From Antechinus flavipes (lineage: Eukaryota), in assembly GCF_016432865.1 (NCBI RefSeq), contig NC_067400.1:571020001-571084000 (forward strand): a stretch of DNA of 64,000 nt, read 5' to 3'. The notes beneath the pieces are model-generated. The model made no database searches. It was not told the DNA's origin and saw only the letters and a program-made list of their open reading frames with translations. This document shows, in pieces, positions 1 through 56,665 of this stretch. Numbering within the stretch: the first letter of the stretch is position 1; each line of letters begins with the position of its first letter. A program made the position numbers and the translations under genes.

Positions 1-1005
1 CTTGGGGGTTGAGGGGGTGGGAAGGAATGGATATTCAATGAATTAGAGAACTTTTAAGCATTTTTGATGAAAAAACCATAACTGAGCAGAAAATTTGATT
101 TTCAAATATAAGATCCAAGAGAAGAATACAAGAAGTAATGAGGAAAGAGAAATCACAAGGGATTTGCTATTGAGCAGAGAAACAAAAATTAAAACAATTG
201 AGGTACTACTCCATACCTTCAGATGGGCTAATATTACAGAAAAGGTATATGACAAATGTTGGATAGAGTATTGGAAAATTAAAATATTAATGCGCTGTTG
301 GTTGTTATATCTAATTTGGAATTAAGCCTAATTAAGAAACTTTGACCCAGAAATTTTATTACTCGGTCTATATCCCAAAAAAATAGAAATTAAAAAAAAA
401 ATGACCTACATGTAAAAAACTATTTATAGAAGCTGTTTTAGTGGTGGTAAAGAATTGAAAATTGAGGGGATGCTCATCATTGGGGAATGGTTGAACAAGT
501 TGTGGCATGTGATTGTGATGGAATACTATTGTGCTGAAATGATGAGCAGGATGCTCTCAGAAAAATCTGGACTTACATGAACTGATGCAAAGAGAAATCA
601 GCAGAACCAGAACACTAGGCACAGCAACAGTAATATTGTATCTACTGTGAATAACTAAGCTATTCTCAGCAATACAATGACCCAAGATAATTTTGAAGGA
701 GTTACAATGACAGGTACTGTCCATCTCAAGAGAAAAAGCTGGTGGAGCCTGAATGCAGATCAAAGATACTTTTCCTTTACTTCATTTTTCTTTTCTTTTT
801 TTTTTTTTTTTGGGGGGGGGTCTATTTTTTTTTTCAAGGCAAAACTAGACATGGAAATATATTTTATGACATGAATAACCTAAGACAAATTGCTTTCCTT
901 TTCAATGAAGGGGGTAAGAGAGGGAGAAAATGTGTAGCTCAAAATTTAAAAAAAATTAAAATTGTTATTACATATAATTGGAGAAAAAATATTAAATATA
1001 AAAAA
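1..1005 (+). mobile_element. Old L1 3' end (degenerate ORF2 C-terminus, 3'UTR, A-rich tail)
   Basis: Similar to the L1 copies at 10.8-13.3 kb (gggaatggttgaacaagttgtgg...atggaatactatt). Confidence 0.75.
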
Positions 1006-4828: not shown

Positions 4829-4919
4829 CTGGAGGAGACACAAGCAGAGGCTGAGTGGGGGCTCCCTCAGGCTCCAGGCCAGCTGGCCCGAGGGGAGGGA
4901 GAGGTCCCGAGGGGAGGGA

Positions 4920-5153
4920 GAGGCTGGGGGGGGGGGGGGGAGGCCCTGGGCAGGGGGGGAGGGAGAGGCCCTGGGCAGGGGGGGAGGGGGAGGCCCTGGG
5001 CAGGGGGGGAGGTCCTGGGCAGGGGGGGAGGGGGAGGCCCTGGGCAGGGGGGGAGGGGGAGGCCCTGGGCAGGGGGGGAGGGGGAGGCCCTGGGCAGGGG
5101 GGGAGGGGGAGAGGCCCTGGGCATGGGGGGGGAGGGGGAGGTCCTGGGCAGGG
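4920..5153. repeat. G-rich minisatellite, about 9 copies of a ~25-bp unit, in P3H1 intron 12
   Basis: Repeated GGCCCTGGGCAGGGGGGGAGGGGGA-like unit read directly. Confidence 0.95.
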
Positions 5154-5162
5154 GCCTGGTAC

Positions 5163-7567: not shown

Positions 7568-7819
7568 CTAAAACAGGCATGAAAATGTTAGGAAAAGCTT
7601 GCTAACCACTTAGTCCATATTTCTGCTTACAAAATAGGGCTAAGATGTATTCCAGGGGGAAAATGAGCTGATTCTGCTCTCCTATGACCTATTCCATTCC
7701 TGTCTCCTCCTCCACTCCTGACAATCAACATCCTTCCAACCTTTTCCTGAACTCCCTCCAGACAGTCCCAGGACCATGTCAACTTTAGACTTCCCAGGCT
7801 ATCCCAAGTTACTTCTTAC

Positions 7820-7909
7820 TGGGTCCACAAAGGGAATTCCAAATACATCGTAAGCAAAGAAAAGCAGCTCCTTCTCCAACAGGCTTCGGTGTCGGTATCT
7901 CTGGGCATT
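7820..7909 (-). CDS. P3H1: P3H1 exon 6 (90 nt)
   Basis: NAQRYRHRSLLEKELLFFAYDVFGIPFVDP; ccag| acceptor, |gtaaga donor. Confidence 0.96.
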
Positions 7910-8179
7910 CTGGGGAAAAAAGACAACAAAAACAATTACTAATTACTTATTGAATGCAAAACATTACTCGATTCTGGAGGAGAGGATAAAAATCTTCTAT
8001 AAGATAGTCCTTGTCCTGGAGCTCACACCATGTATTTGGTTAAGGTGTAGGACAGAAATAACCCTAATACTTAAGAGTGAAGGGCTATGTGATGCCTGGA
8101 AAGGGAAGAGAAGGGGGAAACAGAGAAGGCTTCTTGGAGAAAGTGGCATTTAAGCAGAGTTCTAAAAAATGTAGTTGGG

Positions 8180-9370
8180 TATAGAAATCTATTCTATCCT
8201 ACAGGAAAGTAGGAGAGGAAAGGAATAAAAGAGGGAGGGGGAGTGCTGATAGGAGGGAAGGCAGATTGGGGGAGGCAGTAGTCAGAAGCAAAATGCTTTT
8301 AAGGTTGCACAGGGTAAGAAAAGAGAATGAGTAGGATAAACAAGGGGAGAAAAGGATAGAGGGAATATACAGAAATCTTAACCATGAAAAAAAAATTTAC
8401 AGCAAGTTTCCCTGATAAAGCCCTCATTTCTCAAATATATAGAGAACTGAGTCAAATTTATAAAAATAAGAGCCATTCCTCAGTTGAGGATGTGCACAGG
8501 CAGTTTTCAAACCAAATGATAAAAGCTATCTATAGTCAAATGAAAAATGCTCTGAATCACTACTAACTAGAAAAATGTAAATTAAAACAACTCTGAGGTA
8601 CCAGCCACACTTATCAGGATTAATATGATAGGAGAGGATATAGGAAAATTAAGACACTGATGCATTGCTGGTACAGTTGTGAACTACTTTAACTATTCTG
8701 GAGAGCAATTTGGAATTAAGCTCAAAGGGCTATAAAAACACATATACACTCAACAGCTAGGTCTGCATCCCAAAGAGATTTTTTTTAAAAAAGGAAAAGG
8801 GCCGATACGTACAAACATATTTATATCAACTTTTTTGATGGTGGCACACAAAAAAACAGAAATTGAGGCAATATATATAAATTGGGGAATGGCAGAATAA
8901 ATTGCGGTATGACTGAGATGGAATTCTATTGGGCTATAGAAGTGAGCAGGATGCTCTCAGAAAAATGTAGAAAGGCTTACATGAGTTGATCCAAAATAAA
9001 ATGAGCAGAAAAAACACTGTATACAGTAACAGCAATATTATACAATGATCAACTAAGCGATTATCAATAATCCAATGATCTAAGATAATTCTGGAAAATG
9101 CTAGCCATGTCCAGAGAAAGAACTGATAGAATCTGAATGCAGATCGAAACATACTTATTTAGGCTTTATTTTTCTTTGTTGATGTTGTTGTTTTTGTGGG
9201 GGACTATCTTTCATGATATGATTAATAAAAATATTTTTTGCATGATTATACATATATAACTACATTAAATTGCTTGCTTTCTCAATGAGGAAAGGAGAAA
9301 GGAAATTTAAAATCCTAAATTTAAAAAAGTGTTAAAAATTTTGACATGAAAAAACAATTAAAAAAAAAAA
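8180..9370 (+). mobile_element. Old L1 3' portion
   Basis: Degenerate ORF2 end (DKALISQIYREL...), 3'UTR and poly(A) at ~9360. Confidence 0.8.
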
Positions 9371-11017
9371 AGATGTGTAAGAGTCTGAGCAAAGAAAGGA
9401 CATTTCAAGTAGAGGGAAGAGTGTAAGCAAAGGGATATTTAGCTTGGTTAATGAATCTCTAAGTTGTGAGAGATCTTAAGAGAGAGCCTATTCCCTCTTT
9501 CACATGACAGTCCTTCTGCCTCCAGCACGTCTTCTTCTGACTGAAGACTGAGAATTGAAACACTCCCAGTTCCTTCCTTCTACTGATTTTCACATGGCAT
9601 GAACCCAAGAGCTCCATTCTCTCGACTGCCCTACTCTAGATACTTTCTAGTTTCTTTCTTTAGTGTAGAACCCAGAACTGAATAAATACTCTAGCCATGG
9701 TCTCACTGTGGCACAGGCCAGTAGGATGACCATTTCTCCAGAAGTGGACGTTACATTTCTCAATATGGAAGCCTTTGATTGTGTGAGCCTTTTTTGCTGC
9801 CATGATACTCATGTTAAATAATCAACCCCTAGATCTTTTTCAGAATTGATGCCTAGTCAAATGTCTCATTTTGTAGTTGGAAAATTATTTTTTGAACCCA
9901 TGTTAGATTAAAGTCTCACATTTACTTGAATTTTATTTGCATTAAATTTCCATATATATATATATGTTGCCTTATAAGAGGCAATATGGTATATAGCTGG
10001 CCTAGTCAGGCGCCACCAATCATACATCCTAGCTGTTATTCTGGTCAAAATACTGAATTTCTCTGCATTTTAGGGATCTCTTTAGGATGGTGAGCTGCAG
10101 AGATGCCGCCACTCTGCATTAACAGAGAGAATTCCTCTCCAGAAGTTTCCTACAATGATGAGATCACAGAGTTAGATCCAATTTCACTATATTTCATTAA
10201 GCCCAGTGTTTTAGCCTCCAAAGCCTAACTGTACTTCATATCAGCTGATGTGCCAGCCACAGTTCCCAGGCCTGTTTCACTTGCATCCCAACTATGCCTT
10301 GGTCCTGATGACAATATTAAGCAGCATAGGTCTATGGGAGCATGTCTCCAAAGACTTTTTCCTAAGATGATGCTCAACTATGACCAGTCTTGAGGTCCCA
10401 TCTTTCAGCCAGTTCTGAAAATATATCTTCTTTAGCCCACCTTTCTCCATTTTTTCCCCAAGAGCAAGATAAGATATTATTTAAAAGCATTTGTCAATTT
10501 TGGCAAGACATATTCTTCTTTATAGCTTTTTATTTACAAGATATATGCATGGGTAATTTTTCAGCATTGATAATTGAAAAACCTCTTGTTCTAATTTTTC
10601 CCCTCCTTCCCCCTATCTCCTCCCCTCAGATGGCAGATTGATCAATACATGTAAAATATGTTAAAGTATAAGTCAAATACAATATATGTATACATGTCAA
10701 TACATATTCTTGATGAAGCCATGAGAGCTGAGACCTCTGACTCTTTTTCTAAGGAGATGCTTATTAACCATCTCTTTAAAATTTGCTCTAAAATTTTTTT
10801 TAAGAATTGGAGTCAACAAAAAGCTATCAAACTGTGCATATCCTTTGATCCAGCAGTGTTACTACTAGGCTTATATCCCAAAGAGATTTTTAAAAAGGGA
10901 AAGGGACCTATATGTGCAAGAATGTTTGTGGCAGCTCTGTTTGTAGTGGCCAGAAAACTGGAAACTGAGTGGATGCCAATCAATTGGAGAATGGCTGAAT
11001 AAATTGTGGTATATGAA

Positions 11018-11643
11018 TGTTATGGACTGAGGCTTGAGTTGATGCACTGAGGTCCCAAGCACATGAGGCTAAATAGTAATTGGACCACACTCTATTAATA
11101 TATAAGCTTGGAGGAAGAATGGCCCCCGCCCACTCTTTGTGCAAGTCCTGATGTGTTGTATAGGAAATGATGATTTTGGTGGGTGGAGGCAGGGGAGTGA
11201 AAAAGGAAGGGGAAAGAGAGACTGCTTGCTTTTGCCACTGCAACGACCTTTCTGTTTGTTTCTCTTCTTCTTTTTGCTTTTGCTGAGGCAGTTAAATGAC
11301 TTGCCCATGGTGACACAACCAGGAATTGTTAAGTGTCTGAGGTTGGATTTGAACTCAGGTCTTCCTGACTTCAGGGCTGGTGCTCTACCCACCGAACCAT
11401 CTCAAACAGAAAGGTCATTACAATGGCAAAAGCAAGCTGTCTCTTTCTCCCCTTCCTTTTCCACTCCCCTGCCTCCACCCACCAAAATCATCATTTCCTA
11501 TACAACACATCAGGACTTGCACAAAGAGTGGGCGGGGGCCATTCTTTCTCCAAGCTTATATATTAATAGAGTATGGTCCAATTACTATTTAGCCTCATGT
11601 GCTTGGGACCTCAGTGCATCAACTCAAGCCTCAGCCCATTACA
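11018..11643. mobile_element. Fold-back element: inverted 241-bp LTR-like arms around a SINE
   Basis: Arms 11018-11258 and 11403-11643 are reverse complements (about 11 mismatches by eye); TG...CA ends; TATGAA on both sides. Confidence 0.9.
11259..11402 (-). mobile_element. WSINE1-type CORE-SINE, slightly 5'-truncated, forming the loop of the fold-back
   Basis: Reverse complement of ...tagagcaccagccctgaagtcagga...gagttcaaatcc...cctcagcaaaa; same family as 56515-56665. Confidence 0.85.
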
Positions 11644-12223
11644 TATGAATATTATGGAATATTATTGTTCTATAAGAAATGACCAACAGGATGATTTCAG
11701 AAAGGTCTGGAGAGACTTACATGAACTGATGCTGAGTGAAATGAGCAGGACCAGAAGATCATTATTTACTTCAACAACAATACTATATGATGATCAATTC
11801 TGATGGACATGGCCCTCTTCAACAATGAGATGAACCAAATCAGTTCCAATAGAGCAGGAATAAACTGAACCAGCTACACCCTCTACAGAGAAAGAACTCT
11901 GGGAGATGACTATGAACTACTTCATAGAATTCCCGATCCCTCTATTTTTGTCTGCCTGTATTTTTGATTTCCTTCACAGGCTAATTGTACACTACTTCAA
12001 GTCCGACTCTTTTTATACAGCAAAATGACTGTTTGGACATGTATACATATATTGTATTTAGCTTATACTTTAACATATTTAACATGTATTGGTCAACCTG
12101 CCATCTGGGGGAAGGGGTGGGGAGGAGAGAAAAAGTTAGAACAAAAGGAGCAATTGTCAGTGCTGAAAAATTACCTGTGCATATATTTGTAAATAAAAAG
12201 CTATTAAAAAAAAAAAAGATTTC

Positions 12224-13264
12224 CAAGCCATTCTCCAATTGATAAATGGTCAAAGGATATGAACAGACAATTTTCAGATGATGAAATTGAAACTATTACC
12301 ACTCACATGAAAGAGTGTTCCAAATCACTATTGATCAGAGAAATGCAAATTAAGACAACTCTGAGATATCACTACATACCTGTCAGATTGGCTAAGATGA
12401 CAGGAAAAAATAATGATGAATGTTGGAGGGGATGTGGGAAAACGGGGACACTGATGCATTGTTGGTGGAGTTGTGAACGAATCCAACCATTCTGGAGAGC
12501 AATCTGGAATTATGCCCAAAAAGTTATCAAACTGTGCATACCCTTTGATCCAGCAGTGTTTCTATTGGGCTTATACCCCAAAGAGATACTAAAAAAAGGA
12601 AAGGGACCTGTATGTGCCAAAATGTTTGTAGCAGCCCTGTTTGTAGTGGCTAGAAACTGGAAAATGAATGGATGCCCATCAATTGGAGAATGGCTGGGTA
12701 AATTGTGGTATATGAATGTTATGGAATATTATTGCTCTGTAAGGAATGACCAGCAGGATGAATACAGAGAGGACTGGAGAGACCTACATGGACTGATGCT
12801 AAGTGAGATGAGCAGAACCAGAAGATCATTATATACTTCAACAACGATATTGTATGAGGATGTATTCTGATGGAAGTGGATTTCTATGACAAAGAGACCT
12901 AACTGAGTTTCAATGGATAAATGATGGACAGAAACAGCTACACCCAAAGAAGGAACACTGGGAAACGAATGTGAACTATTTGCATTTTTGATTTTCTTCC
13001 CGAGTTATTTTTACCTTCTGAATCCAATTCTCCCTGTGCAACAGGAGAACTGTTTGGTTCTGCAAATATGTATTATATCTAGGATATACTGCAACATATT
13101 TAACATATATAGGACTGCTTGCCATCTTGGGGGCGGGGGTGGAGGGAGGGAGGGGAAAAAACGAAACATAAGCAAGTGCAAGGGATAATGTTGTAAAAAA
13201 TTACCCTGGCATGGATTCTGTCAATACAAAGTTATTATTAAGTAAAATTAAATTAAAAAAAAAA
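12224..13264 (+). mobile_element. Younger 5'-truncated L1 (element B); ORF2 C-terminal 203 codons still open (12259-12870)
   Basis: CWRGCGKTGTLMHCWWSC Cys-rich ORF2 motif; TSD (A)nGATTTC ending at 12223 and 13270. Confidence 0.92.
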
Positions 13265-15642
13265 GATTTCATCAGTTCTTTTTCTGGAGGTGGATAGCAT
13301 TTTAAATAATAAATTTTTTGAAATTGTCTTTGAATAAATTATTGTATTTCTGAGAATAAAAAAAAAAAGAATTGGAGTCAAGCTCCTGTGCATGGCTATC
13401 AGGCTCCTTAATATTAAATTTTAAATCCTTCTTTTATTCCTAATCAGAATTGTTCCTTTGTCTTTGGTTTCCCATGCCTCCTAGATTGATTTCTACTGCA
13501 TAATTTTCATCTATAGACTCCTCCATATATATTCTTTCTCTAAATCCTTTTGGGCTCTCCTAGAAATTTAGGGTAGATAAGTAGGTTTCTTTATCTTCTT
13601 TATCACAAATTCTGAGAGAAATTTTTTCCCAAGGGTTTCATCATTTCCACCTCAGTTATTTCCTCTTGGGTATTAATAAAATTCCATAGAGAATTTCCTT
13701 TATATTGATTCTTTTCCCATCTGAAGGATAAAATTATTATTAAGGCAAGTTAAGAAATTATTAGTTTCTCTGCTTTTAGCAAATGACTGGATAACTGAAG
13801 TCCTTGATCCCTATTACATCCAATTTCTTTATCAGTTTTGTAATCTATTACTCAAGCACCTCACCCATCTCTCTGTTTAGGTGGGCTATCATACAATTTG
13901 TATGATAATAATGTGCCTGTTTCTACCTCCATTGGTTTTCATCTAAATAGTCTTATGTCATCTTAATTTACAATGGTATTTTGCACCTCACTAATCTGAT
14001 CCTATTTCTTTTGAATATGGTACATCCTTTCATGTTTACTTTAATCATGAATCTCTCTCCACTCATCAAACTTTCAAGAAACTTAAAAAACAAAAACAAA
14101 AAACTAGACCTGTGATTTCATCAGTTTAGGGAGATCCCTGTGAGTAATTCTCCCTAACAATGTAGACCAATAACTACTCTGCAATGAGAGGTGCTTGGAG
14201 CACTTGGACTTACTGATCTACCCAAACCATAAGGCTAGGAGGAGTCAGAGGATTTGAATTTGTTTCTTGCTTCCTCCAGAAGCCAGCTTTCTCTCTATTA
14301 TATCACAATGTCTCCTTCTGGCTTGACAGCCACATTCTGGACACAGGTATGTATCTGGATTTGGGGTCCTCTGAACTTCTAGCTAGCATTGCCTGCTATT
14401 TTTCCTATAGTGTGATGTCTACTCTTTAGACTGAGGGGTATAAAAAGCAGTTCTTTTCCTCTCTCTTTCATTTTTAAAGCCTAAATAATCAGAATTCCAG
14501 TGCACTAGGCAAATGCCCCCTGACCAGCTCTTCTTAGGAGCACTCTCTTTCTCCTCAAGAGCATATAATCTAATCCATGAAAGGCTCAGGAGGAAATGAT
14601 AGCTATCTTCAATACTGAAGGGCTGTTATGTGAAAGAGGAATTAAGGTGGTCCTCCTTGGCCACAAAAGACATTACTAGTAGCAGTGGGTAGAAGTATAA
14701 AGAAGCCAATTTAACTGGATTTAAGAAAAACGTCTTAATAATTGGAAGTTTTCAAAAGTGAAGCAAACAGCCATGGACAAGCAAGGGAGAGGCTGGATGA
14801 CTTCCTATCTGACCCTCTGCAGAAGGAATTCTCGATTAGACTTGATGGGCTCAGGATTCTACAACTCAGACCCAAAGACCAGTGTGACTAATATCTAGAA
14901 ATATCTTTTGGATGGGGAAAGAAGCACAAAAGTGAGGGATGAACCGGAATGAGATGAAGGGGAAGAGGAAAAGGAAAAAGTTGGCATAAACCGCTAGTAA
15001 GCTGTCTTGGAGGAGGATGATAATGATTAGTTTCAGCTGCTTAATGATGCCCAGTCTGTCTCTGGTGAGGAATGGACTCTATCCCATACCAAAGAACCAG
15101 ATCCACCACACACCCTGTCCTTCCAGCATCTTCAAGCCAGAATCCTTTGCTCTTTTGCCGGGCCCAAGGCTGCCCCTATCATCATTATCTCAGGAGAGCA
15201 TCCCAGAGGGTGAGGTGGAAGGCAAAGGGCTGAGCTCATGCCAAAGGAAGAGTGTGAAACTTGAAGAAGAGAAGACTTGAATGGGCCATGGAAACTACCA
15301 TTTGTTGAAAGGTCATAAATGTTCTGTATGGCCTAAAGAGCAGAATCAGGAAAGGAGTGAAAGCCACAGAGAGGCAAACTTAGTAATAAGATAGGATGTC
15401 CAAGAGTAGAATGGGCTGCCTTGGAAAGTAGGGGATCTTTCTGCAGATCTTTGCACAAAAGCTAGATAACTATATAGGGACTAGGTTGTACTAGGGATTT
15501 TTTTCAGGTTTGATTTGGACAAATCCTTTTTACACTAAGAATTGATAACCAACCACAGAAAGAATGGGGAACAGATGCTGCCCCATCTCTGGGCCTGGAT
15601 CCACCTGGCCAGCCACCACCATGACTAACAGAAGCCACTCAC

Positions 15643-16441: not shown

Positions 16442-17796
16442 CCTCTTTGCTCTCTCTGCCTCAGCTCTCCTCCCCAGGTCCTACCTCTTCTATCTACCAG
16501 TACCCTCCCACTCCTGTTAAAATTCCCTGGTTTTTTCCAGGTCTACTATTAGGGGTCAGGGACAAATCTTTGTGAAGAAATCTAGAACGTGGTTCTTCAT
16601 GTGTGAAGAAACTTGGCCCATAGTTGGTCCTTGACTGCTTATTGACTTGACCTCCCATCTACCCTTCCCTGCCTCAAATCTGGGCTGGCCAAAGACCAGG
16701 CAATTTTACAAGAAGCCATGTCTGTGCTGCTACCTCTACTATCACTGTTGCTGCTACCTCTAGGACCAATATTTTCCCCTGTTTTGCCACTAAGGACTAA
16801 ATCATGGAAAGACAATCTCAGCCTTATCCCTTCCCCTCCACCCCCCGAGGAAATTGAAGTTAAGTGACACAACCCAGCCTTATCCTTAACCATATAACTG
16901 CAGCTGTACTGAAAAGCATCTTTTTGCTACAGTACACATTGTTAGACAAGCCCCCTCCCCTGCCATTGCTCATAGACCTTTGACATTCTCATGTTTGTGG
17001 CACCAATAGTATCCCAGGGAGTGAAATACCAGAAAGGTATTTCTTGGCTAAAGCCTTGTAACAATAGGCACAGCCAGGCAAGGAGACACCTCAAACCTAT
17101 TCCATAAGTCCAACTGCACTCAAAAGGAGTAGCCTGAAAAAGGCCCAACAATTCTAATTAGGAATTTGAAGCTGATGAAGTCTATGTGTTTTTCTTATAC
17201 ATCAGCTCATAGTTGAGTAGATCTCCTCCCACCCAAAGTGAAATGACCTGCCTCCCAATAAGAAGGTAACAAGTGCCTCAAGTTTGATTCCTAAGCTTCC
17301 CCTCCAAATCAGCCTGTTCCTCATGCCTAGAACACTCTCCCTTTTCTCTGTTTCTGAGAAGTCTTGGCTCCTTTTAAAACCCAAGTCCCATGAGCCTATC
17401 CCAAGAGGTTTTCCTGATTCTTCCCCTCTCATTCCAAAATCAATTTGCATGTGTTTTAATTTACTTATGGTTGTATGTTGTCTCGGCCCCATTTCCTGCC
17501 ATCCCACAGAAAGTAAGCCCCTAGAGCAGAGGGGCCAGTCTTGTCAACCTGGCATTCCCATCGCCCAGCACAGTGCCTGGCACCAAGAATGGAGCTAAGC
17601 CAGGACCATTTCCTGGCTGGGCCTATCCCTCTTTGCCCTCTCTGCCTCAGCTCTCCCTCCCCAGGTCCTACCTCTTCCATCTACAAAAGTTGCCTCCCAC
17701 TCTTGTTAAAATTCCCTGGCTTTTTCCAAGTCTGCTATTAGGGGTCAAGGACAAATCTCTCTGAAGAAATCTAGAACGTGGTTTCTTCATGTGTGA
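16442..17796 (+). repeat. Dispersed direct repeat, ~165-bp copies at 16442-16606 and 17628-17796
   Basis: Both copies run cctctttgc...gaagaaatctagaacgtgg..tcttcatgtgtga with scattered differences. Confidence 0.9.
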
Positions 17797-19460: not shown

Positions 19461-20582
19461 TGACTGTTCTAATCTTGGCTCCCTTCCTCCCTATTAACTC
19501 CTTTTGGGTTTCCTTCTCAATTCCCTCTTCATCTTCTTTATGGCTCCCCTTTCTTCTTACCCCTCTATGTGGACAGCTCCCAATCTTTCTGGCACCATCA
19601 TCTTTCCTGATCCTGAATATGACTCATCTTATTTTTTCTAGAAAGCCTTCCTGATTTTTCCAGTCTTTCCTTATCTTGTCTCTAGTCTCCTTTTATATTT
19701 ATAGAGTATGCCATCTTGTTTAGAAATTAATTGCAAGCTGATTTCTATTTTTTTAAAGCTGCAAGAGCCCATTTTCTTATTTACAAATAAGATTAGGGGC
19801 CAGAGGGGTAAAGGTATTTGTCTAGGATCACAGAACTCATTATTAGTACAGCAGAGTCTGGGACTAGAATCCAGGTTGCCCAACAATAATAATTGTTGCC
19901 ATTACTTACATGTCCACAGTACTTTCTGATTGACAAAACACATCCACTCCCTGGGTTGTCAACTGACTTGTGTAGTTCACAGATCTTTCCCTATCCACAT
20001 TGTAGTCATCAAAAACCCTGGCATTATGACAATGGGCAGATCTAGTGTCTGTTTCATGGGCTGAATAAGAAGACACAGGGCCCTTATGAGTTGCTTTGTT
20101 TTATTTTAGTTTCAGTGCAAGCTCTAATTAGAAGATGTCATAAAAAGAACTGCAGAATAGTGCTTGGGGCCCAGCCCCTTCCCCTTCCAGGGCTTTAGGA
20201 GGTGCTGGTACTGGCTTCTGAGGCCAGGTACTTGATATGTCAAAGAAAACCTTGGGATCAGATCAAGAACATCTAGCTTTAATTCCTCATTACTCAACTT
20301 CCTACTTGTATGAACTTGGGCAATTACTTCTCTGGGCCTCAGTTTCTCTTATCTGTAAAATGGGGTGTTTTCTAGTTATAAAAATCTGAGATTCTGTGAA
20401 ATTTGTAAGATTATATGTAGGAACCATGTAATCTACATACTATAAAGAGCATTCCTGAGCATCCCATGTACTAATGTACTAATGAGAAATCAAATATATT
20501 AATGAAGAGGTAACAGTTCTTTTTTCTATTGTTTTGATAAAGAGAGCAGAAAGAGGCAGAAGAGGAGGAAAATGGCTCTTAC

Positions 20583-22192: not shown

Positions 22193-25139
22193 CTGGAAGT
22201 GAAGCAAAATGAAGTAGTTCCCCAGTCTACACCAAGCAGATAGCCTCCCTTCTGAAGAGACTCCCTGCCTCCAGGCTCCCTCTGGTTGTCATCGAGGGCA
22301 GGCCTGACCATGCCATCTCTTGCTCAAATGCTAGCAACTCCCTAAGACACCATAGCCCAACAACATATACTGCTGTGTTCCACATTAGAAGTTCTTTACA
22401 ACTCAGCCCTTCATAGCACTTTTCTGCAGTTCTTTTTATGGCATCTTCCAAGTCTGCCATTCCTCCCTGAACCATTCTACAATCCAACACCATGACCCTG
22501 TCCATGTATAGCACAATTTGTCCCTAGCTTTGATCATTGCCCAAACCTGCGACATTCTCCTCACCACCTCATTCCTCTTGGCTTCCCATGTTTCCCTCAA
22601 GACTGAACTCAAAACCCCTTTTCTTCAAGAGACCTTTCTTGGTCCTCTTTAAAATTACTCCCAGTTCTATTGCATATAGTTTGTATGTGTCTAGTAGTTT
22701 GTGTTGACTCCCTCATTATAACACAAGTTCCTAGAAAGCAGGGACCATGTCTCTACTTTCTTTCTATCTTTGAATTTACCTGAGTACAAAGTACTCTTAT
22801 TAAATCTTTATTGACCAGCTGATTGGCACATTAGGGACACAGAATTAGAAAAGCATGATATACAACTATGCCCCAAGAAGTCAGCCTTTGGTGAGCAGGA
22901 ATCCTCAAACCCTTTCCAGCCAACTAAGCCCAGATCTTTCCTTTTAAGAGGATGAACTGCCTTTTGTTAGTCCTGTTCTACGTGCCTCTGGTTGAAAGGA
23001 ACTAGGAAGAACAACAATTTCTCTGGGATAAACTTAACACAGCAGATGCTGAAGAGTAAATGAGTGTTTCTCTGATCAGGCCTGGGGATATAGCTGTTAA
23101 AACAACGTACAATGCTTCACTCAGTAGTGCTTATTTTCAATTTTTTAAAATAAAGGTTACACTTATAACTATTCAATCTTCTAATTCCAGGATTCTGATC
23201 AGGAACTGAGATAACCAAAAACAGAAACATCAAAGGGACTAAGGATGGATATAGGGTCTTAAAGAATGACACTGGGCTCAATAAGTACTTTGAAAGACAA
23301 ATTCGGGGAGGTGGATTAAATTATCCAGGCATATTCAGAAACAGGCTACATTATTGGCAAATCCTAAACTCTTCACAAAATTATGGGGAGCTGGTGGCAC
23401 AGTGGAATAGAGTGTTTGTCTGGAGTGAGAAGACCTGAGATTAAATCAAGCCTCAGACACTAACTCTGTGACAATTGGCCAAGTTACTTAACCACAATCT
23501 GCCAGTTTCCTCAGCTGTATAAGCATAATAGACTTGTTCAGGGCAAAACGAGAATAGTAAAGCACTTTGTAAAGCTTAAAGTCTTATGCACATATAAGCT
23601 ATCATTTCACTTTTATCTTTGTATCTCTTTTATACTTCTAGCACAATACCTGGGACACAGTAGATGCTTAATTGGTTCATTTGATTCCTACCCCAAAATC
23701 CATTCTGGAGAATTCTAGTTCCTGCTCCAACAGTAACAAGCTGCAGGATCTTGAAAAAACACAAAATTCTTATAGGCCTCAGTTTCCCAATATGTCAAAT
23801 GAAGTAATTGGAATAGATAATTGGACTACATAAATGGACTAGAAACCTCTCAGGTTTCTCTTTCCAGGACTAGATTAATTTTTATTGTTAGAAGTGATGA
23901 AGCCTTCCAGATATGAATTTTTGCTTGATTTTCTTCCATTTTCTCTCTTTGTGCAATGAAATATCCCTTCCATTAAGTAACCGCTGTCCTCCTCTCCTAC
24001 AATTATGCTATTACATCATTCAGTTTTTAAGGGCATATGAGTTTGGGGAAGAATTATATATATCTTGCAGAATTTTATATTCTCTTATCTAGAAGATTGG
24101 GGGGGGGGGAAGGAAAGGTATTTTTTTCAGAGTAACTGTTTCCTGGAGATGGGCGTTTGAGTCCATATTCTTTGTGGCTTATCTGTGGGCTGTTAAAGGT
24201 CTTTTCTTTAAAGATGCATTTTGAAAAAAACATAAGCAGTTTTGCCAGCCAGCTCTTGTCTGGAGCCAAAAACCTTGGTTTTTGTTCTGTCCTCAGAACT
24301 GCTCTTAACATTCTGCAGAACTGAAGGGCTGGCACTAGTGAATTAACCCTTAAGGGCTAGACTAGTGAAGTCAAATAGCCAATAGGAAAAGAAATAAAGA
24401 ATACCGCCAACCGAGAAACGGGACAAAGTAGTATGTAATTTCTGTGTTTTAACTTAACTCAGAAACTTGAGAGGGTCCCCGGCAGGGAGGAGCCTGGGCC
24501 CCTGCCTGCTACGTGGCATTCCAGGGCCTGAAACGGAAGGCGCTGGAGTCGCTAGAAAAGGAAGAGTAATCAAGAAACCTTTTCTAAGCTTGAAAAGAGA
24601 TGGGGCTAAGAAACAAGGGAAAGCACTGGTGGAAAAAAAAGCCCTGCAACTTTGTTCACAACCAAGCATTGCAACTTTGCCTACAACCAGGCATTGCAAC
24701 TTTGTCTCTAAACTAGCTGTAGGGTCAGGGGGTGGAGAGCTCCCAGCTCAGCCGGTATCCCGGGGGTTGGGGCAAGACCTGGAAGGAAAGATATCTCTCC
24801 AAGTTCTAGAGACTTAAGCCTGGGTCACACCTGCATTTCATCTTCAAAATCCCTTCTCGGTCTGACTCGGACACGGCCAGCTCCCTGGAGCATCCTGGAG
24901 GGAATGGGGGATGCCATCAGCTAAGCCCACAGAACCTCAGAGTGGAGAGAACCCGGACACTCTCTCCATCCTGAATCTGAACAAAGGTCCGTTCTATTAT
25001 GTGCTCAATGGGTTATGCAGCAGCATCTCCAGTGAGGGGGAGCTCACTACCTATCAGGCTGGTGTATTCATTTTGGAGCAGATCCTGCTCACTCGGGGCC
25101 TGCCCGTGTCCCCCACTAGGCCCCCAGCCGCCGCCGCAC

Positions 25140-25619: not shown

Positions 25620-26718
25620 AGCCGACCGTGCACACCTAACGGACCCGGCGGGCAGCCACTCACAACCCGCCTGGAGCTCCGCCCCAGAAGCCAACCCCGC
25701 CCTAAAGGCTGAGCCCCGCCCCTAGGCGGCCTGACCCGACTAGGGTGAAACCTCGGCCTTAGACTGCATCCCAGAATGAGACCTACCCTTAGACCTATGC
25801 ACCACCCTCGAAGGATAAAGCCCTGCCTTTAGACCGCCTCAGAGAACAAGCTCCGCCTCTAAACCTATGCACCTCCTCCAAAGAATAAAGCCCCGCCTTT
25901 AGGCCAATGCACCTTTTCTACTGGACGTTTTGCCCTTAGACCTCCAAAAAAAAAGTGAGCCCCACTTTCTAGACCTATGCCCGCCCCACAGTGTGAAGCC
26001 CCACCCCTAGACCAATACACGTTTGGGGGCCAAGGGATGCAACACGTCACACATATACCATGCCTTCCTCTAGACTGATTCACCACCCCTAGGTTCCTTT
26101 TTCCTCTTTTCCGTCCGTCAGGAAGGAGGTGAATCTTAGACTTGAGCCTCACAGGTAGAAGTCTTCCCAGGACAAAAGACTTAAATCATAACCGTGTCCC
26201 CGCCCCCGCCTCTCTGGTAAGTCTTTAGGCCAGAGCCCTCAGAGTGTAGCCCCGCCCACAATAGAATGCCATCCTTGGCCTAGATAGAAAGACTATCTCC
26301 GCTCCTCAGAAGGGAGGCGGCATCTTCAGAACAGAGCCCAGATAACAGTTTGAGTAACCCAATGGTACCCAGATCATCTTTACATTCATATTTAACATAC
26401 TCTACATTTACATCTTTACTTTAGAGAGAGGTCTCAAGCACATCAAATGGATCCTACTAGATTGTAAGCAAATGCTAATATTTTTATTTTTCTGCTTTCC
26501 CTAGCTCTTAGCAAAGAACAGAGCCCCATTTTTAGTGACCCGTCCCTACAACGAAGCCCCGCTTCCCAACCAGGAGGCAGCGAGCTTAGTCCCGTCAGCC
26601 CCTCTCCAGGAGGCGCGACCTTATTTTAAAGCCACGCCCCCTGACGTAGCCCTTCCATTAGCCCGCCTCTTCCTCACAGCGCATGCGTCACCTGTCGGGC
26701 TTCTCCAGAGTCGGGAAC
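25620..26718. promoter_or_regulatory. Bidirectional CpG-island promoter shared by P3H1 and C1orf50
   Basis: Divergent ATGs at 25619 and 26719; many CCCCGCCC/CCCCGCCT GC boxes; CRE-like TGACGT at 26642; NRF1-like GCGCATGCGT at 26679-26688; YY1-like AACATGGCGGC overlapping the C1orf50 ATG. Confidence 0.85.
26340..26516 (+). repeat. 177-bp copy of 28749-28926 (C1orf50 intron 2) inserted in the promoter
   Basis: Near-identical text agataacagtttgagtaaccca...ctagctc(t/c)tagcaaag; AGAACAGAGCCC on both sides. Confidence 0.93.
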
Positions 26719-27029: not shown

Positions 27030-29268
27030 GTGAGGGGAGAGAGACGAGAAGGGAGCAGAGAGAGCCTGGGACAGGGGGAGAGGAGAGAGAGCCGAGAGAA
27101 GGGAGGGGTGGGGAGAGAGAATATGGTGGGGGCGAGAGGGGAGGATGCCGGGGTTCTGGTGGGATGGAGGAAGAGGGAAAAGAATATAGAGGTGAGGTGA
27201 TGGGAGGGAGGGGAAGAAAAAATACCTGGGAGTGAGTGGATGAGGGAAGGACCAGATCTGGGTGAGGATCGTAGAGTTTGGTGTGGAAGTGGTAGAAAGA
27301 CTTGGCTCTTGTGGGGAATATGGAAGGCAGTACTTGAGCTTTGTGAGGATAGGGAAAAGTCTTAGCCTTTTTATTTATTTTTATTTTTTTTGAGGAGAAA
27401 GAAGGATGGAAGAAGATTCCTAGCTTGTGGCAAGATTAAGGAGACTTTGTCCTTGGAAGGTTGGAGAGACCTTTGTATATTACCTGATGACGGTAGCCAG
27501 AGCAGGCATTTATATATATATATACATGTACACAACACATGTGTATTTGTATGTCCATACATATATGTATACACACATATCTTGTTTATGCTTGTTTGTG
27601 GTGCCCCCAGTAGGCAGTAAATTCTTTGAGAGCAGAGGGACTACTTTTGCTTTTCTTTGTATCTCTAAGGCTTAACACTATAGTAGGTGTTTAATAAATG
27701 CTTGATGATGATTGGAGCTGGAAGGGACCTCAGAAGCCTTCATGTCCAACCCCTTTGTTTTTACAGATAAGGGAACTGAAAGGTTAAGTGATTTGCTCAA
27801 GGTTGCACGGTTAGAAGTTACGGGTTGAACTAGATGATCCCATTCAAAAATTCTGTCATGTGCAATACAAAGCTATCCATACCAACAAATAACAGTATAG
27901 TAGATGATTTTCCCAAATTATCTCAGTTTTCAATCTCACATAGTTTTCATTTCCAGTGGAAGTTTCTTCTCATACAATGTTACTTCTGCACTTTGCCTCT
28001 AAAAGATTACTTGTGTTTTAGAAACATTGTGATATTTGATGATAGTAATGAAAAATGTTCCCATTGTTCCCACTGCCTTAGAGTGCCCTTGATGATGATA
28101 AATAAAGGTAACCATTTTCTCAACTGCACCTTTGATAGATTTCTTGGTCCCATTTTCCAGTAAAGGAAAATTCAGATTTTTATGACTTTCTGTGACTTTT
28201 ATCTTCTCCTTTTTAGAATGGGGGAAAAACTATGGGTCAAAAGATGCTAATTTACACAGGTAGATAAGTGGTATATTATCAGACTATTGTGAGGAAAATT
28301 AGTATAGAATATTGGAGGCACAATTTTTAATTCTTCTAAGCTTACATGCTGATTTTGTAAATACTCCATGGACAGGGAAGGCAATTACTGAGTGTCTCCT
28401 ATATTTATAGAATTGTCTTGGATGCTATTGGTGGGAATAAGATTTGGTCTTTTTGGAGCTAGGTAAGTTGAGAAAGCATATACAAGAAATATGCAAGAAA
28501 CAATTAGCTAACATTGAGTAGTTTACAATGTATGTGTACGTGGATATATATGTGTGTGTGTATATATTGTCTGTATGTGTGTGTATCAAATGCACAAGTT
28601 AAAAGAGCACTTCATATTCTTGTTATGCTTATATTCTCATTTGTGATATTTTCATTTTATATCAATAATGACCTATATACCAGAAGTCATTATAAGAAAT
28701 GTACCATCAGAAAGGGAGTAGGCTATTTATATGGCAGAAATGAGGGGAAGATAACAGTTTGAGTAACCCACTAGTACCCAGGAGATCTTTACATTCACAT
28801 TTAACATACTGTACCATTTACATCTTTACTTTAGAGAGAGGTCTCAAGCACATCAAATGGATCCTATTAGATTGTAAGCAAATGCTAATATTTTTATTTT
28901 TCTGCTTTCCCTAGCTCCTAGCAAAGTACTTTGTATGTGGTGATGAAGTGATAAAGAATTTAATTACATGACTTAGAAACATAACTGATGAGAAAGCACA
29001 GTACTGGATAATTTTATTTGGGTAATTGGAGTTACATGGGAAGGCTTCAGAGTTCTTTCTTCTTCCTGCTTACTTTGAATGTGTATAGAGTGGCAAGGGA
29101 TCTGGACCTACTGGAGTTTCTACCAGTAGCTATATAAAGTTTGTTAGGAGATCTTTTAAGATATTGCTCTTTGCTATGTCCAGCCCTTTTCATTACACAT
29201 CTATTTTATCATATAAAAAAAATTGGAGCAGGGAGTTTGGAAGAAATATTATAATATTCTCTCTAAAA

Positions 29269-29730
29269 TGTAATATTCTCTGTTTCTTTTTCTTTGGGGG
29301 ATCTCTGGAAGAAGCCTTCCTTTCAGTTCAGTACTCACCACAAGTGCAGCCAGGGATTAAAGTCCAAATCCTTTATTGTCCCTTTCCAAGTGTTTTCTCC
29401 TTTCCTGTGGTCCAGTTAGCTTTCTTATAGTCAAGATCCTTTATTATCTCCTTACTGGAGCTGGGAAGCTTTCTGGAGATCCTTTCAGTCTGGCCTTGGT
29501 TCTGAGAGCTTGAGCTCCTGCCTGCCTTCTCTGGCTTCTGAATCTCCCCGACTGAATCCTGGCTGAGGCTCCTAGCTTATATATGCTCTCTTATCAAAGG
29601 TGTGAATCTTATAAAACTATAGTAAATACTAAGTACATGTACTGAACTAGAGAAGTGTTAAGCATCATGCTAAATAACCATTGCCTCTATCAATTCCACT
29701 TAGCACCTTGTTAAGTTGTGGCCCATAACA
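29269..29730 (-). mobile_element. Solo LTR (ERV), antisense in C1orf50 intron 2
   Basis: Minus strand starts TGTTATGGGC and ends ...ATTACA; TATA-like element at ~29580; AATAAA at 29445-29440 and 29377-29372; left boundary and TSD uncertain. Confidence 0.7.
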
Positions 29731-40663: not shown

Positions 40664-40811
40664 TTGTATTTTATTTTATTTGCTGAGGGGATTGGAATTA
40701 AGTGACTTGCCCAGGGTCACAAAGCTAGGAAGTGTTAAGTGTCTGAGGTCGCATTTGAACTCAGATCTTCCTAACCACCCCCTGCCCTATCCACTGCGCT
40801 ACCTAGCTGTC
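40664..40811 (-). mobile_element. WSINE1-type SINE
   Basis: Full-length antisense copy; near-perfect TSD CCTC(T/C)CCTTACAA. Confidence 0.88.
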
Positions 40812-46325: not shown

Positions 46326-46606
46326 TCATGAAGAAGAAAGTACAACTTTCATAATCCCTATTTTATGAATAAGGAAACATTTCAGAATGACTGAGTGACT
46401 TCCCCAAAGGACTATCACTCTGAACCCAGATTCAAACTTATGTTACAAAGTTGATGTTATTCCATAAGAAACTCTGTGCTAATGAGAAAGAGCCAGATGG
46501 CTTGCTCCTAGAAGACACTGCCTTTGGGAGATATCTGTCTGATTTCAGCTCCTCATTCCCCTGGAAGACCTGAGCCTTTGCTGACTCTTTACAAAACTGA
46601 AGGCAA

Positions 46607-47247
46607 TGTTTGTAGTGGCTAGAAGCTGGAAAATGAATGGATGCCCATCAATTGGAGAATGGTTGAGTAAATTGTGGTATATGAATGTTATGGAATATTA
46701 TTGTTCTGTAAGGAATGACCAGCAGGATGGATACAGAGAGGACTGGGGAGACTTACATGAACTGATGTTGAGTGAAATGAGCAGAACCAGGAGATCATTA
46801 TATACCTCAACAATGATACTGTTTGAGGATGTATTCTGATGGAAGTGGATCTCTTCGATAAAGAGAGCTAATTCAGTTTCAATTGATCAAGGATGGACAG
46901 AAGCAGCTACACCCAAAGAAAGAACACTGGGAAATGAATATAAACTGCTTGCATTTTTGTTTTTCTTCCTGGATTATTTATACCTTCTGAATCCAATTCT
47001 CCCTGTGCAACAAGAGAACTGTTCAGTTCTGCACACATATATTGTATCTAGGATATACTGTAACCTATTCAACATGTAAAGGACTGCTTGCTATCTGGGG
47101 GAGAGGGTGGAGGGAGGGAGGGGAAAAATCGGAACAGAAGTGAATGCAAGGGACAATGCTGTAAAAAATTACCCAGGCATGGGTTCGTCAATAAAAAGTT
47201 ATTTAAAAAAATAATAAAATAAAATCTAAGAACTTAAAAAAAAAAAA
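46607..47247 (+). mobile_element. Young 5'-truncated L1
   Basis: ORF2 end nearly identical to 12640-12870; 14-bp TSD AAAACTGAAGGCAA at 46593-46606 and 47248-47261. Confidence 0.93.
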
Positions 47248-56514: not shown

Positions 56515-56665
56515 GGGACCACTATGTGGGGCAGTGGATAGAGCACCATCCCTGAAGTCAGGAGGACCCGAGTTCAAATCAGATCTCAGACATTTAACAC
56601 TCTCTAGTTGTATGACCCCGGGCAAGTCACTTAATCCCAATTGTTTCAGCAATAAAAACCAAACA
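56515..56665 (+). mobile_element. WSINE1-type SINE inserted in an old L1 remnant
   Basis: B-box GAGTTCAAATC; TSD AAAAGATCTC. Confidence 0.88.

Follow-up and report, generated by a model that had tools for sequence, protein, structure and literature searches.

A fold-back unit of two inverted betaretroviral LTR starts around a SINE in a P3H1 intron of Antechinus flavipes

Results

The locus

The DNA analysed here, which we refer to as the window, is a stretch of 64,000 nucleotides of Antechinus flavipes contig NC_067400.1 (assembly GCF_016432865.1, positions 571,020,001 to 571,084,000 of the forward strand). P3H1 lies here on the minus strand. An exon at 15640–15780 matches residues 315–360 of PDB 8k0e_A (E = 3e-24) and the next lies near 7810–7900, giving approximate bounds of 7900–15640 for the intron between them. 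Its earlier designation as intron 5 fits the four exon-like open reading frames found upstream by eye. Inside this intron is an older, 5'-truncated L1 3' end on the plus strand (10818–12219), which served as the target of the insertion described here and is split by it.

The L1 block has a history of its own. A nested L1 3' fragment lies at 12226 to about 13256, with a 16-nt target site duplication (TSD) at 12208–12223 and 13255–13270; an apparent 3' transduction of about 95 nt, carrying a poly(A), also belongs to the block; and a 15-bp TSD (10802–10816 and 13367–13381) encloses the whole of it (10802–13381). About 100 nt upstream, a minus-strand L1 3' end (10513–10704) is 83% identical to the tail of the host L1, and the two make up a second, older inverted pair around the unit. 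Elsewhere in the window there are two direct local duplications of 165–180 nt at 90–94% identity (16442–16606 with 17628–17796, and 26340–26519 with 28749–28929), and a GC-rich tandem repeat (4892–5154) lies between P3H1 exons close to the 3' end of the gene.

Structure of the inverted unit

The inserted unit, 626 nt long, consists of two 241-nt arms (11018–11258 and 11403–11643) in inverted orientation, separated by a 144-nt loop (11259–11402) that abuts both arms directly. The arms differ by 11 substitutions, nine of them transitions, and by no indels, an identity of 95.4%, in accordance with the figures of 241 bp and ~95% in the preliminary description. That description had also stated that the loop has no TSD of its own, that TATGAA flanks the unit and that its removal restores the L1, and all three points hold. 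No direct repeat flanks the loop. The hexanucleotide is present on the left, as host L1 sequence (11012–11017), and again on the right (11644–11649), where the L1 continues, and it occurs once only in the intact L1s at 12710 and 46680. Deletion of 11018–11649 leaves a continuous L1 3' end when compared with the L1 copies at 12630–12810 and 46600–46790. The fold-back structure is real. Folding of the minus-strand RNA and of the DNA gave z = −54 and z = −37, respectively, each against 20 shuffles, and the unit is the strongest of the four inverted pairs in the window with arms less than 3 kb apart, the remaining three being two L1 pairs and one 37-nt pair. The last of these (20128–20164 and 22415–22451, 92% identity, 2.3 kb apart) lies around P3H1 exons.

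Neither AATAAA nor ATTAAA occurs on either strand of either arm, and the unit, read directly against the published primer binding site (PBS) and polypurine tract (PPT) of the retrovirus identified below, has no PBS, PPT or U5. It is thus not a solo LTR or a provirus, in which the LTR is complete, running through the poly(A) signal to the U5 end, and direct in orientation, and it is not a non-autonomous LTR element or TRIM, in which direct LTRs accompany a PBS and a PPT.

Origin of the arms

We have found that the right arm (minus strand) is colinear, from base 1, with the LTR (29..497) of the record Marsupial_endogenous_betaretrovirus_3 (MEBrv 3) in PMC11334065. Counted by eye, 120/137 nucleotides agree in a first block and 34/35 in a second, about 154/172 or ~90% in all, a count that skips a 61-nt duplication carried by the published LTR and absent from the arm. 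The purine-rich inner part of the arm aligns only loosely, and the published poly(A) signal falls beyond the point where the arm ends. The left arm, on the plus strand, has the same 5' 241 nt in sense orientation and stops in a T-rich stretch after which the poly(A) signal would follow. According to PMC11334065, MEBrv 3 is an env-less, Type A/IAP-like class II endogenous retrovirus (ERV), a betaretrovirus of dasyurid marsupials; most dasyurid ERVs belong to it, with intact copies in quoll, dunnart and antechinus and degraded ones in the devil, and its record is of a provirus bounded by a 6-bp duplication. The alignment supports assignment of the arms to the U3-side LTR starts of MEBrv 3. An LTR-start origin of ERV2/betaretroviral type, as first proposed, is therefore borne out by the LTR match together with the 6-bp TSD of the family, and a DNA-transposon terminal inverted repeat is excluded as the source of the arms since the ends are those of a retroviral LTR.

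The unit thus resembles the MEBrv 3 LTR in its register from LTR base 1 and in the 6-nt length of the duplication. It differs in holding the 5' 241 nt only, twice and inverted, with no poly(A) signal, U5, PBS, PPT or genes, and it departs from the published quoll LTR in the missing 61-nt duplication and the diverged purine-rich part.

A relative of the arm was found in a predicted Sarcophilus harrisii POLR3G (UniRef A0A7N4PBV1; E = 1e-13), one of three candidates obtained with a second reading frame and the only one to match, in which 34 of 40 residues are identical to the right arm. The arm is therefore a dispersed repeat in a dasyurid. Over the stretch in which the devil POLR3G copy departs at 6 of 40 residues, only 2 of 120 nt separate the two arms, and both arms therefore derive from one molecule. 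The C-terminus of the devil prediction is itself an antisense MEBrv 3-type LTR, either exonised or an artefact of annotation.

The start of an LTR at 29730 had been noted as similar to that of the arms. This is so for the first 10 nt (9/10), which together with a 16-nt TATA-like motif are all that the two have in common; the similarity goes no further, as the local alignment score of 70 is no better than the shuffle mean of 74, and the LTR at 29730 therefore belongs to another family. The element in question (29269–29730, minus strand) is solo LTR-like, with TG...CA ends, a TATA sequence, two AATAAA signals and a flanking duplication that is not clean.

Self-BLAST of the 64 kb revealed no third copy of the arm. 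Four 12-nt arm motifs were absent from four supplement files of PMC4408412, in which alignment gaps can hide motifs, and arm motifs were likewise absent from the searched part of the PMC13641905 supplement. The LTR table of the latter paper may already annotate the arms.

The loop and its age relative to the arms

The loop is a single, decayed, tRNA-derived SINE, sense on the minus strand, and is 83–86% identical to SINE copies at 40698–40775 and 56534–56634 in the window. Its tentative label, WSINE1 (a tRNA-headed CORE-SINE of about 140 nt with an A tail), is based in part on PMC3403934 and not on a match to a named consensus. About 9 nt are missing from its 5' end. A short deletion precedes the degenerate A-rich tail, and the tail in turn meets the left arm at its T-rich end. 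The limits of the SINE are the limits of the loop, with no host DNA alongside, and the flanks are inverted rather than direct, leaving the SINE without a TSD of its own. At its 5' junction there is no microhomology, as judged against a fuller copy in the window. Protein matches derived from the loop are tRNA-like and SINE-derived; two sub-threshold Rfam matches were taken as chance.

The loop lies ~9% from the centre of three window copies, a distance that is based on those three only and in which subfamily and CpG effects are contained. Outside the first 9 nt, 9 of 232 positions (3.9%) differ between the arms. With the rate quoted for WSINE1 in PMC3403934, 0.0045 per site per Myr, this second figure corresponds to about 4 Myr (range 2–8), or more if the rate is slower. 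The larger distance of the loop suggests capture of a SINE that had by then already aged. The internal differences between the arms are clustered next to the loop, with seven of the nine in 45 nt (11200–11244 and 11417–11461, P about 0.005; counted by region, 7/59 against 2/173). The outer stem may have been homogenised by conversion, or the purine-rich tract may be mutable; because of the first possibility, the event may predate the 3.9% estimate, and the argument from an old SINE and young arms is weakened. RNA editing as the source of the arm differences is not supported: seven of the nine transitions give G–U pairs on the minus strand (P = 0.18), and a transcription-linked asymmetry fits equally well.

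The two ends

The two ends of the unit are unequal. On the right, the arm finishes in a precise CA joined straight to the target, with the two terminal bases of the unprocessed viral end missing: CA is followed by TA, and the PPT-side bases published for MEBrv 3 are AA (PMC11334065). On the left, the first 9 nt of the arm (11018–11026) read as the continuation of the L1 and match the start of the right arm at 7 of 9 positions. The two discrepant bases, 4 and 9, are those of both intact L1 copies and differ from the right arm and from the published LTR, which agree with each other at these positions. The left 9 nt are therefore host-derived or host-converted, and they extend the 6-nt repeat, equal in length to the MEBrv 3 TSD, to a host duplication of 15 nt (11012–11026 and 11644–11658, 14/15 identical). 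An alternative in the preliminary description, that the left start is L1 continuation and points to microhomology, is thus supported by the L1-type bases, with the correction that the duplication is of 15 and not 16 nt.

The similarity between target and viral end is uncommon. A 7/9 match to the right-arm start is reached at 197 of 127,984 sites in the window (0.0015 per site), and the match of the target to the unprocessed viral end, 9/11, at 29 of about 128,000 (0.0002), a number that includes the two ends of the unit itself and two homologous L1 sites. It is implausible that the similarity is due to chance and that two separate mutations then brought the arm closer to L1. This leaves two possibilities, a left joint formed through the homology itself and a concerted 6-bp joint that underwent conversion afterwards. 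The first is favoured by how rarely such a match occurs, the second by its beginning at a distance of exactly 6 nt from the right joint. With one precise, processed end and another with short homology and an altered duplication, the unit has the features by which aberrant one-ended proviruses are recognised in PMC5041404. We also considered that the whole unit was inserted in the manner of an L1, with a TSD of 15 nt, and rejected this on finding no terminal poly(A) and no endonuclease-like site at the ends.

Protein searches

A stop-free frame of 180 codons runs through the unit, and its only matches are SINE-derived, tRNA-like or repeat sequences. In protein space this frame was matched by none of 1514 candidates and by none of a further 116. 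A representative protein library returned five matches (three SINE-derived, one tRNA-like and one repeat with no match in the window), none of which aligns credibly to the arm, and a search of the Atlas gave nothing above 0.79. These searches covered some of the reading frames, and their blanks say little about copy number.

Discussion

That the unit is a one-off event derived from MEBrv 3, by the route set out below or by one of its two leading rivals, is very probable. The reading that we favour, with about an even chance of being right, is that the unit is a single aberrant cDNA product of MEBrv 3, fixed in the germ line, in which a U3 duplex was closed by a loop of SINE cDNA and then inserted by integrase at one end and by host repair at the other. 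In a virus-like particle, the A-rich tail of a co-packaged RNA from an old SINE would have annealed to the T-rich part of the LTR that ends at nt 241. Plus-strand synthesis from the U3 start would then have continued onto the SINE RNA almost to its 5' end, and ligation of the SINE cDNA end to the opposite strand of that same U3 duplex would have produced a hairpin with the U3 end as stem and the SINE as loop. Its 3' CA end would have been joined to the L1 target by integrase to form the right junction. Host repair would have completed the other end through the 9/11 match between target and unprocessed viral end, duplicating 15 nt of host sequence. All of these steps are inferred from this single locus.

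Such a hairpin closes on one U3 duplex, which accounts for both arms stopping at the same base. In its favour are also the coincidence of SINE and loop limits, the derivation of both arms from one molecule, the rare 9/11 match and the orientation of the loop, which places the CA-3' end on the precise side (a one-in-two test). Against it, the LTR-like 9 nt start exactly 6 nt, the TSD length of the family, from the right joint, for which a coincidence is needed; a decayed SINE is as compatible with a template of DNA as with one of RNA; and the sequence gives no account of a minus strand that ends at the U3 terminus. Both of its less usual ingredients have been seen before. PMC5041404 reports integration at one end only, accompanied by short homology, duplication of host sequence, viral sequence in inverted orientation and foreign inserts, and the packaging of host small RNAs and their patching into retroviral cDNA is described in PMC4997597.

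An unlikely but substantial rival is that the same one-off MEBrv 3/SINE chimera, fully double-stranded and with two U3 ends (or two viral ends held in one intasome), was integrated in concert and that the 6-bp TSD is genuine. Conversion of the left 9 nt to L1 would have followed, the nearby 15-nt near-repeat taking part in branch migration and mismatch repair. The duplication does have the TSD length of the published MEBrv 3 record and LTR base 1 is in register at the start of both arms, but a chance 7/9 match at the site (0.0015 per site) is required, followed by conversion of exactly two bases towards L1, and the reciprocal LTR bases are absent from the right flank. Somewhat less likely again is a hairpin formed without the ERV reverse transcriptase. 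A normal U3 end may have integrated alone and the rest of the cDNA been lost at nt 241, a host polymerase then extending the free end over a genomic SINE, folding back over the LTR strand and rejoining the target by microhomology; or ERV DNA not yet integrated may have been nicked at nt 241 by L1 ORF2p, which then copied the SINE RNA, as in L1-bridged fold-back inversions. Extension of a free end over several templates, on either viral strand and on distant host DNA, is the model given in PMC5041404, and in PMC7058536 two inverted copies are linked by a retro-copy. This origin would suit the decayed state of the SINE and predicts the same asymmetry of the ends. With a DNA template, however, the stop within ~9 nt of the SINE 5' end, the exact limit at the tail and the equal arms would all be coincidences. 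With L1, there is no L1-type TSD or clear endonuclease site at the inner junctions (a T-rich arm end is seen at the tail junction), and WSINE1 mobilisation in Dasyuridae ended about 30 Ma according to PMC4408412.

Two further explanations carry much less weight. The preliminary description had suggested a MITE-like non-autonomous element, that is, a family with LTR-derived inverted ends moved by ERV integrase. The anatomy is indeed MITE-like, with long terminal inverted repeats, a short, non-coding centre and a 6-nt target duplication, and the integrase attachment sequence is present at both ends. MITEs and foldback DNA transposons nevertheless take their ends from a DNA transposon with a cognate transposase, and MITEs occur as many near-identical dispersed copies, whereas here the ends are those of a retroviral LTR and multiple copies are not in evidence. 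There is one copy in 64 kb, and no arm–SINE junction is spanned by the protein-space matches, sparse as these are (three SINE-derived and one arm match in all). The unit has no PBS, PPT or U5 and so could not be copied again by the ERV route, and its left end is not a clean integrase joint. Retroviral integrase is not known to excise chromosomal DNA. The suggestion of a family is therefore not sustained by the window or by the protein-space searches, and we regard it as improbable. An artefact of assembly, or two independent back-to-back LTR insertions followed by a deletion, is the least credible of all. Fold-back chimeras do arise in amplified or long-read libraries. The arms, however, have diverged by 11 substitutions with no indels, are closer to each other than to another copy of the family and end at the same base; the target duplication is single and the L1 is restored on removal, and for these reasons an artefact is very unlikely.

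Among the systems to which the unit can be compared are the aberrant one-ended proviruses of HIV-1 and ASLV (PMC5041404). These too have one normal end, while the other shows short homology and a host duplication of increased length, and they can hold additional viral sequence, inversely oriented, and a foreign insert of host origin. The present unit differs from them in being natural, fixed in the germ line, only 626 nt long and symmetric, and in having as its insert one SINE with near-exact limits. In the L1-bridged fold-back inversion described in PMC7058536, a retro-copy likewise links two inverted copies with no TSD; that inversion spans megabases between sister chromatids, whereas here 241 nt of ERV cDNA are folded and the product inserted whole. 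The solo LTRs of the devil “novel ERV1” and its L1-mobilised fragments, as presented in PMC4408412, are dasyurid ERV LTR pieces of similar size (589–711 nt) that have moved by unusual routes, but they are class I, with a 4-nt TSD and poly(A)-tailed fragments, and are not described there as inverted. No precedent for a U3–SINE–U3 structure was found in the part of PMC6466679 covered, and no report of such an arrangement in the literature searched by title and abstract opening, with thin coverage of subscription journals. The component parts are already known, and the unit is a real, well-preserved and unusual variant of aberrant ERV integration.

Taken by itself the unit is a curiosity, and it would gain importance only if a recurrent class or family emerged genome-wide. 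We hold it to be improbable that the unit is one of many, with MEBrv 3 repeatedly yielding U3–loop–U3 palindromes at the T-rich site and some of these being re-mobilised as DNA. Were this so, cruciform extrusion would offer two U3 ends to one intasome and retroviral integrase would act as the transposase of an LTR-derived MITE. Small RNAs directed against the most abundant ERV of dasyurids could also arise from hairpins of this kind when these lie in host transcripts. At present the effect of the unit would be to place a double-stranded ERV LTR stem of ~240 bp in the P3H1 pre-mRNA, a possible substrate for RNA editing or small-RNA production. If our favoured reading of a single aberrant cDNA product is correct, the unit would be a fossil, naturally preserved in the germ line, of events otherwise studied mostly in cultured cells, namely one-ended integration and the capture of packaged host RNA, and an IAP-like ERV would have moved SINE RNA after the reported end of SINE retrotransposition in dasyurids.
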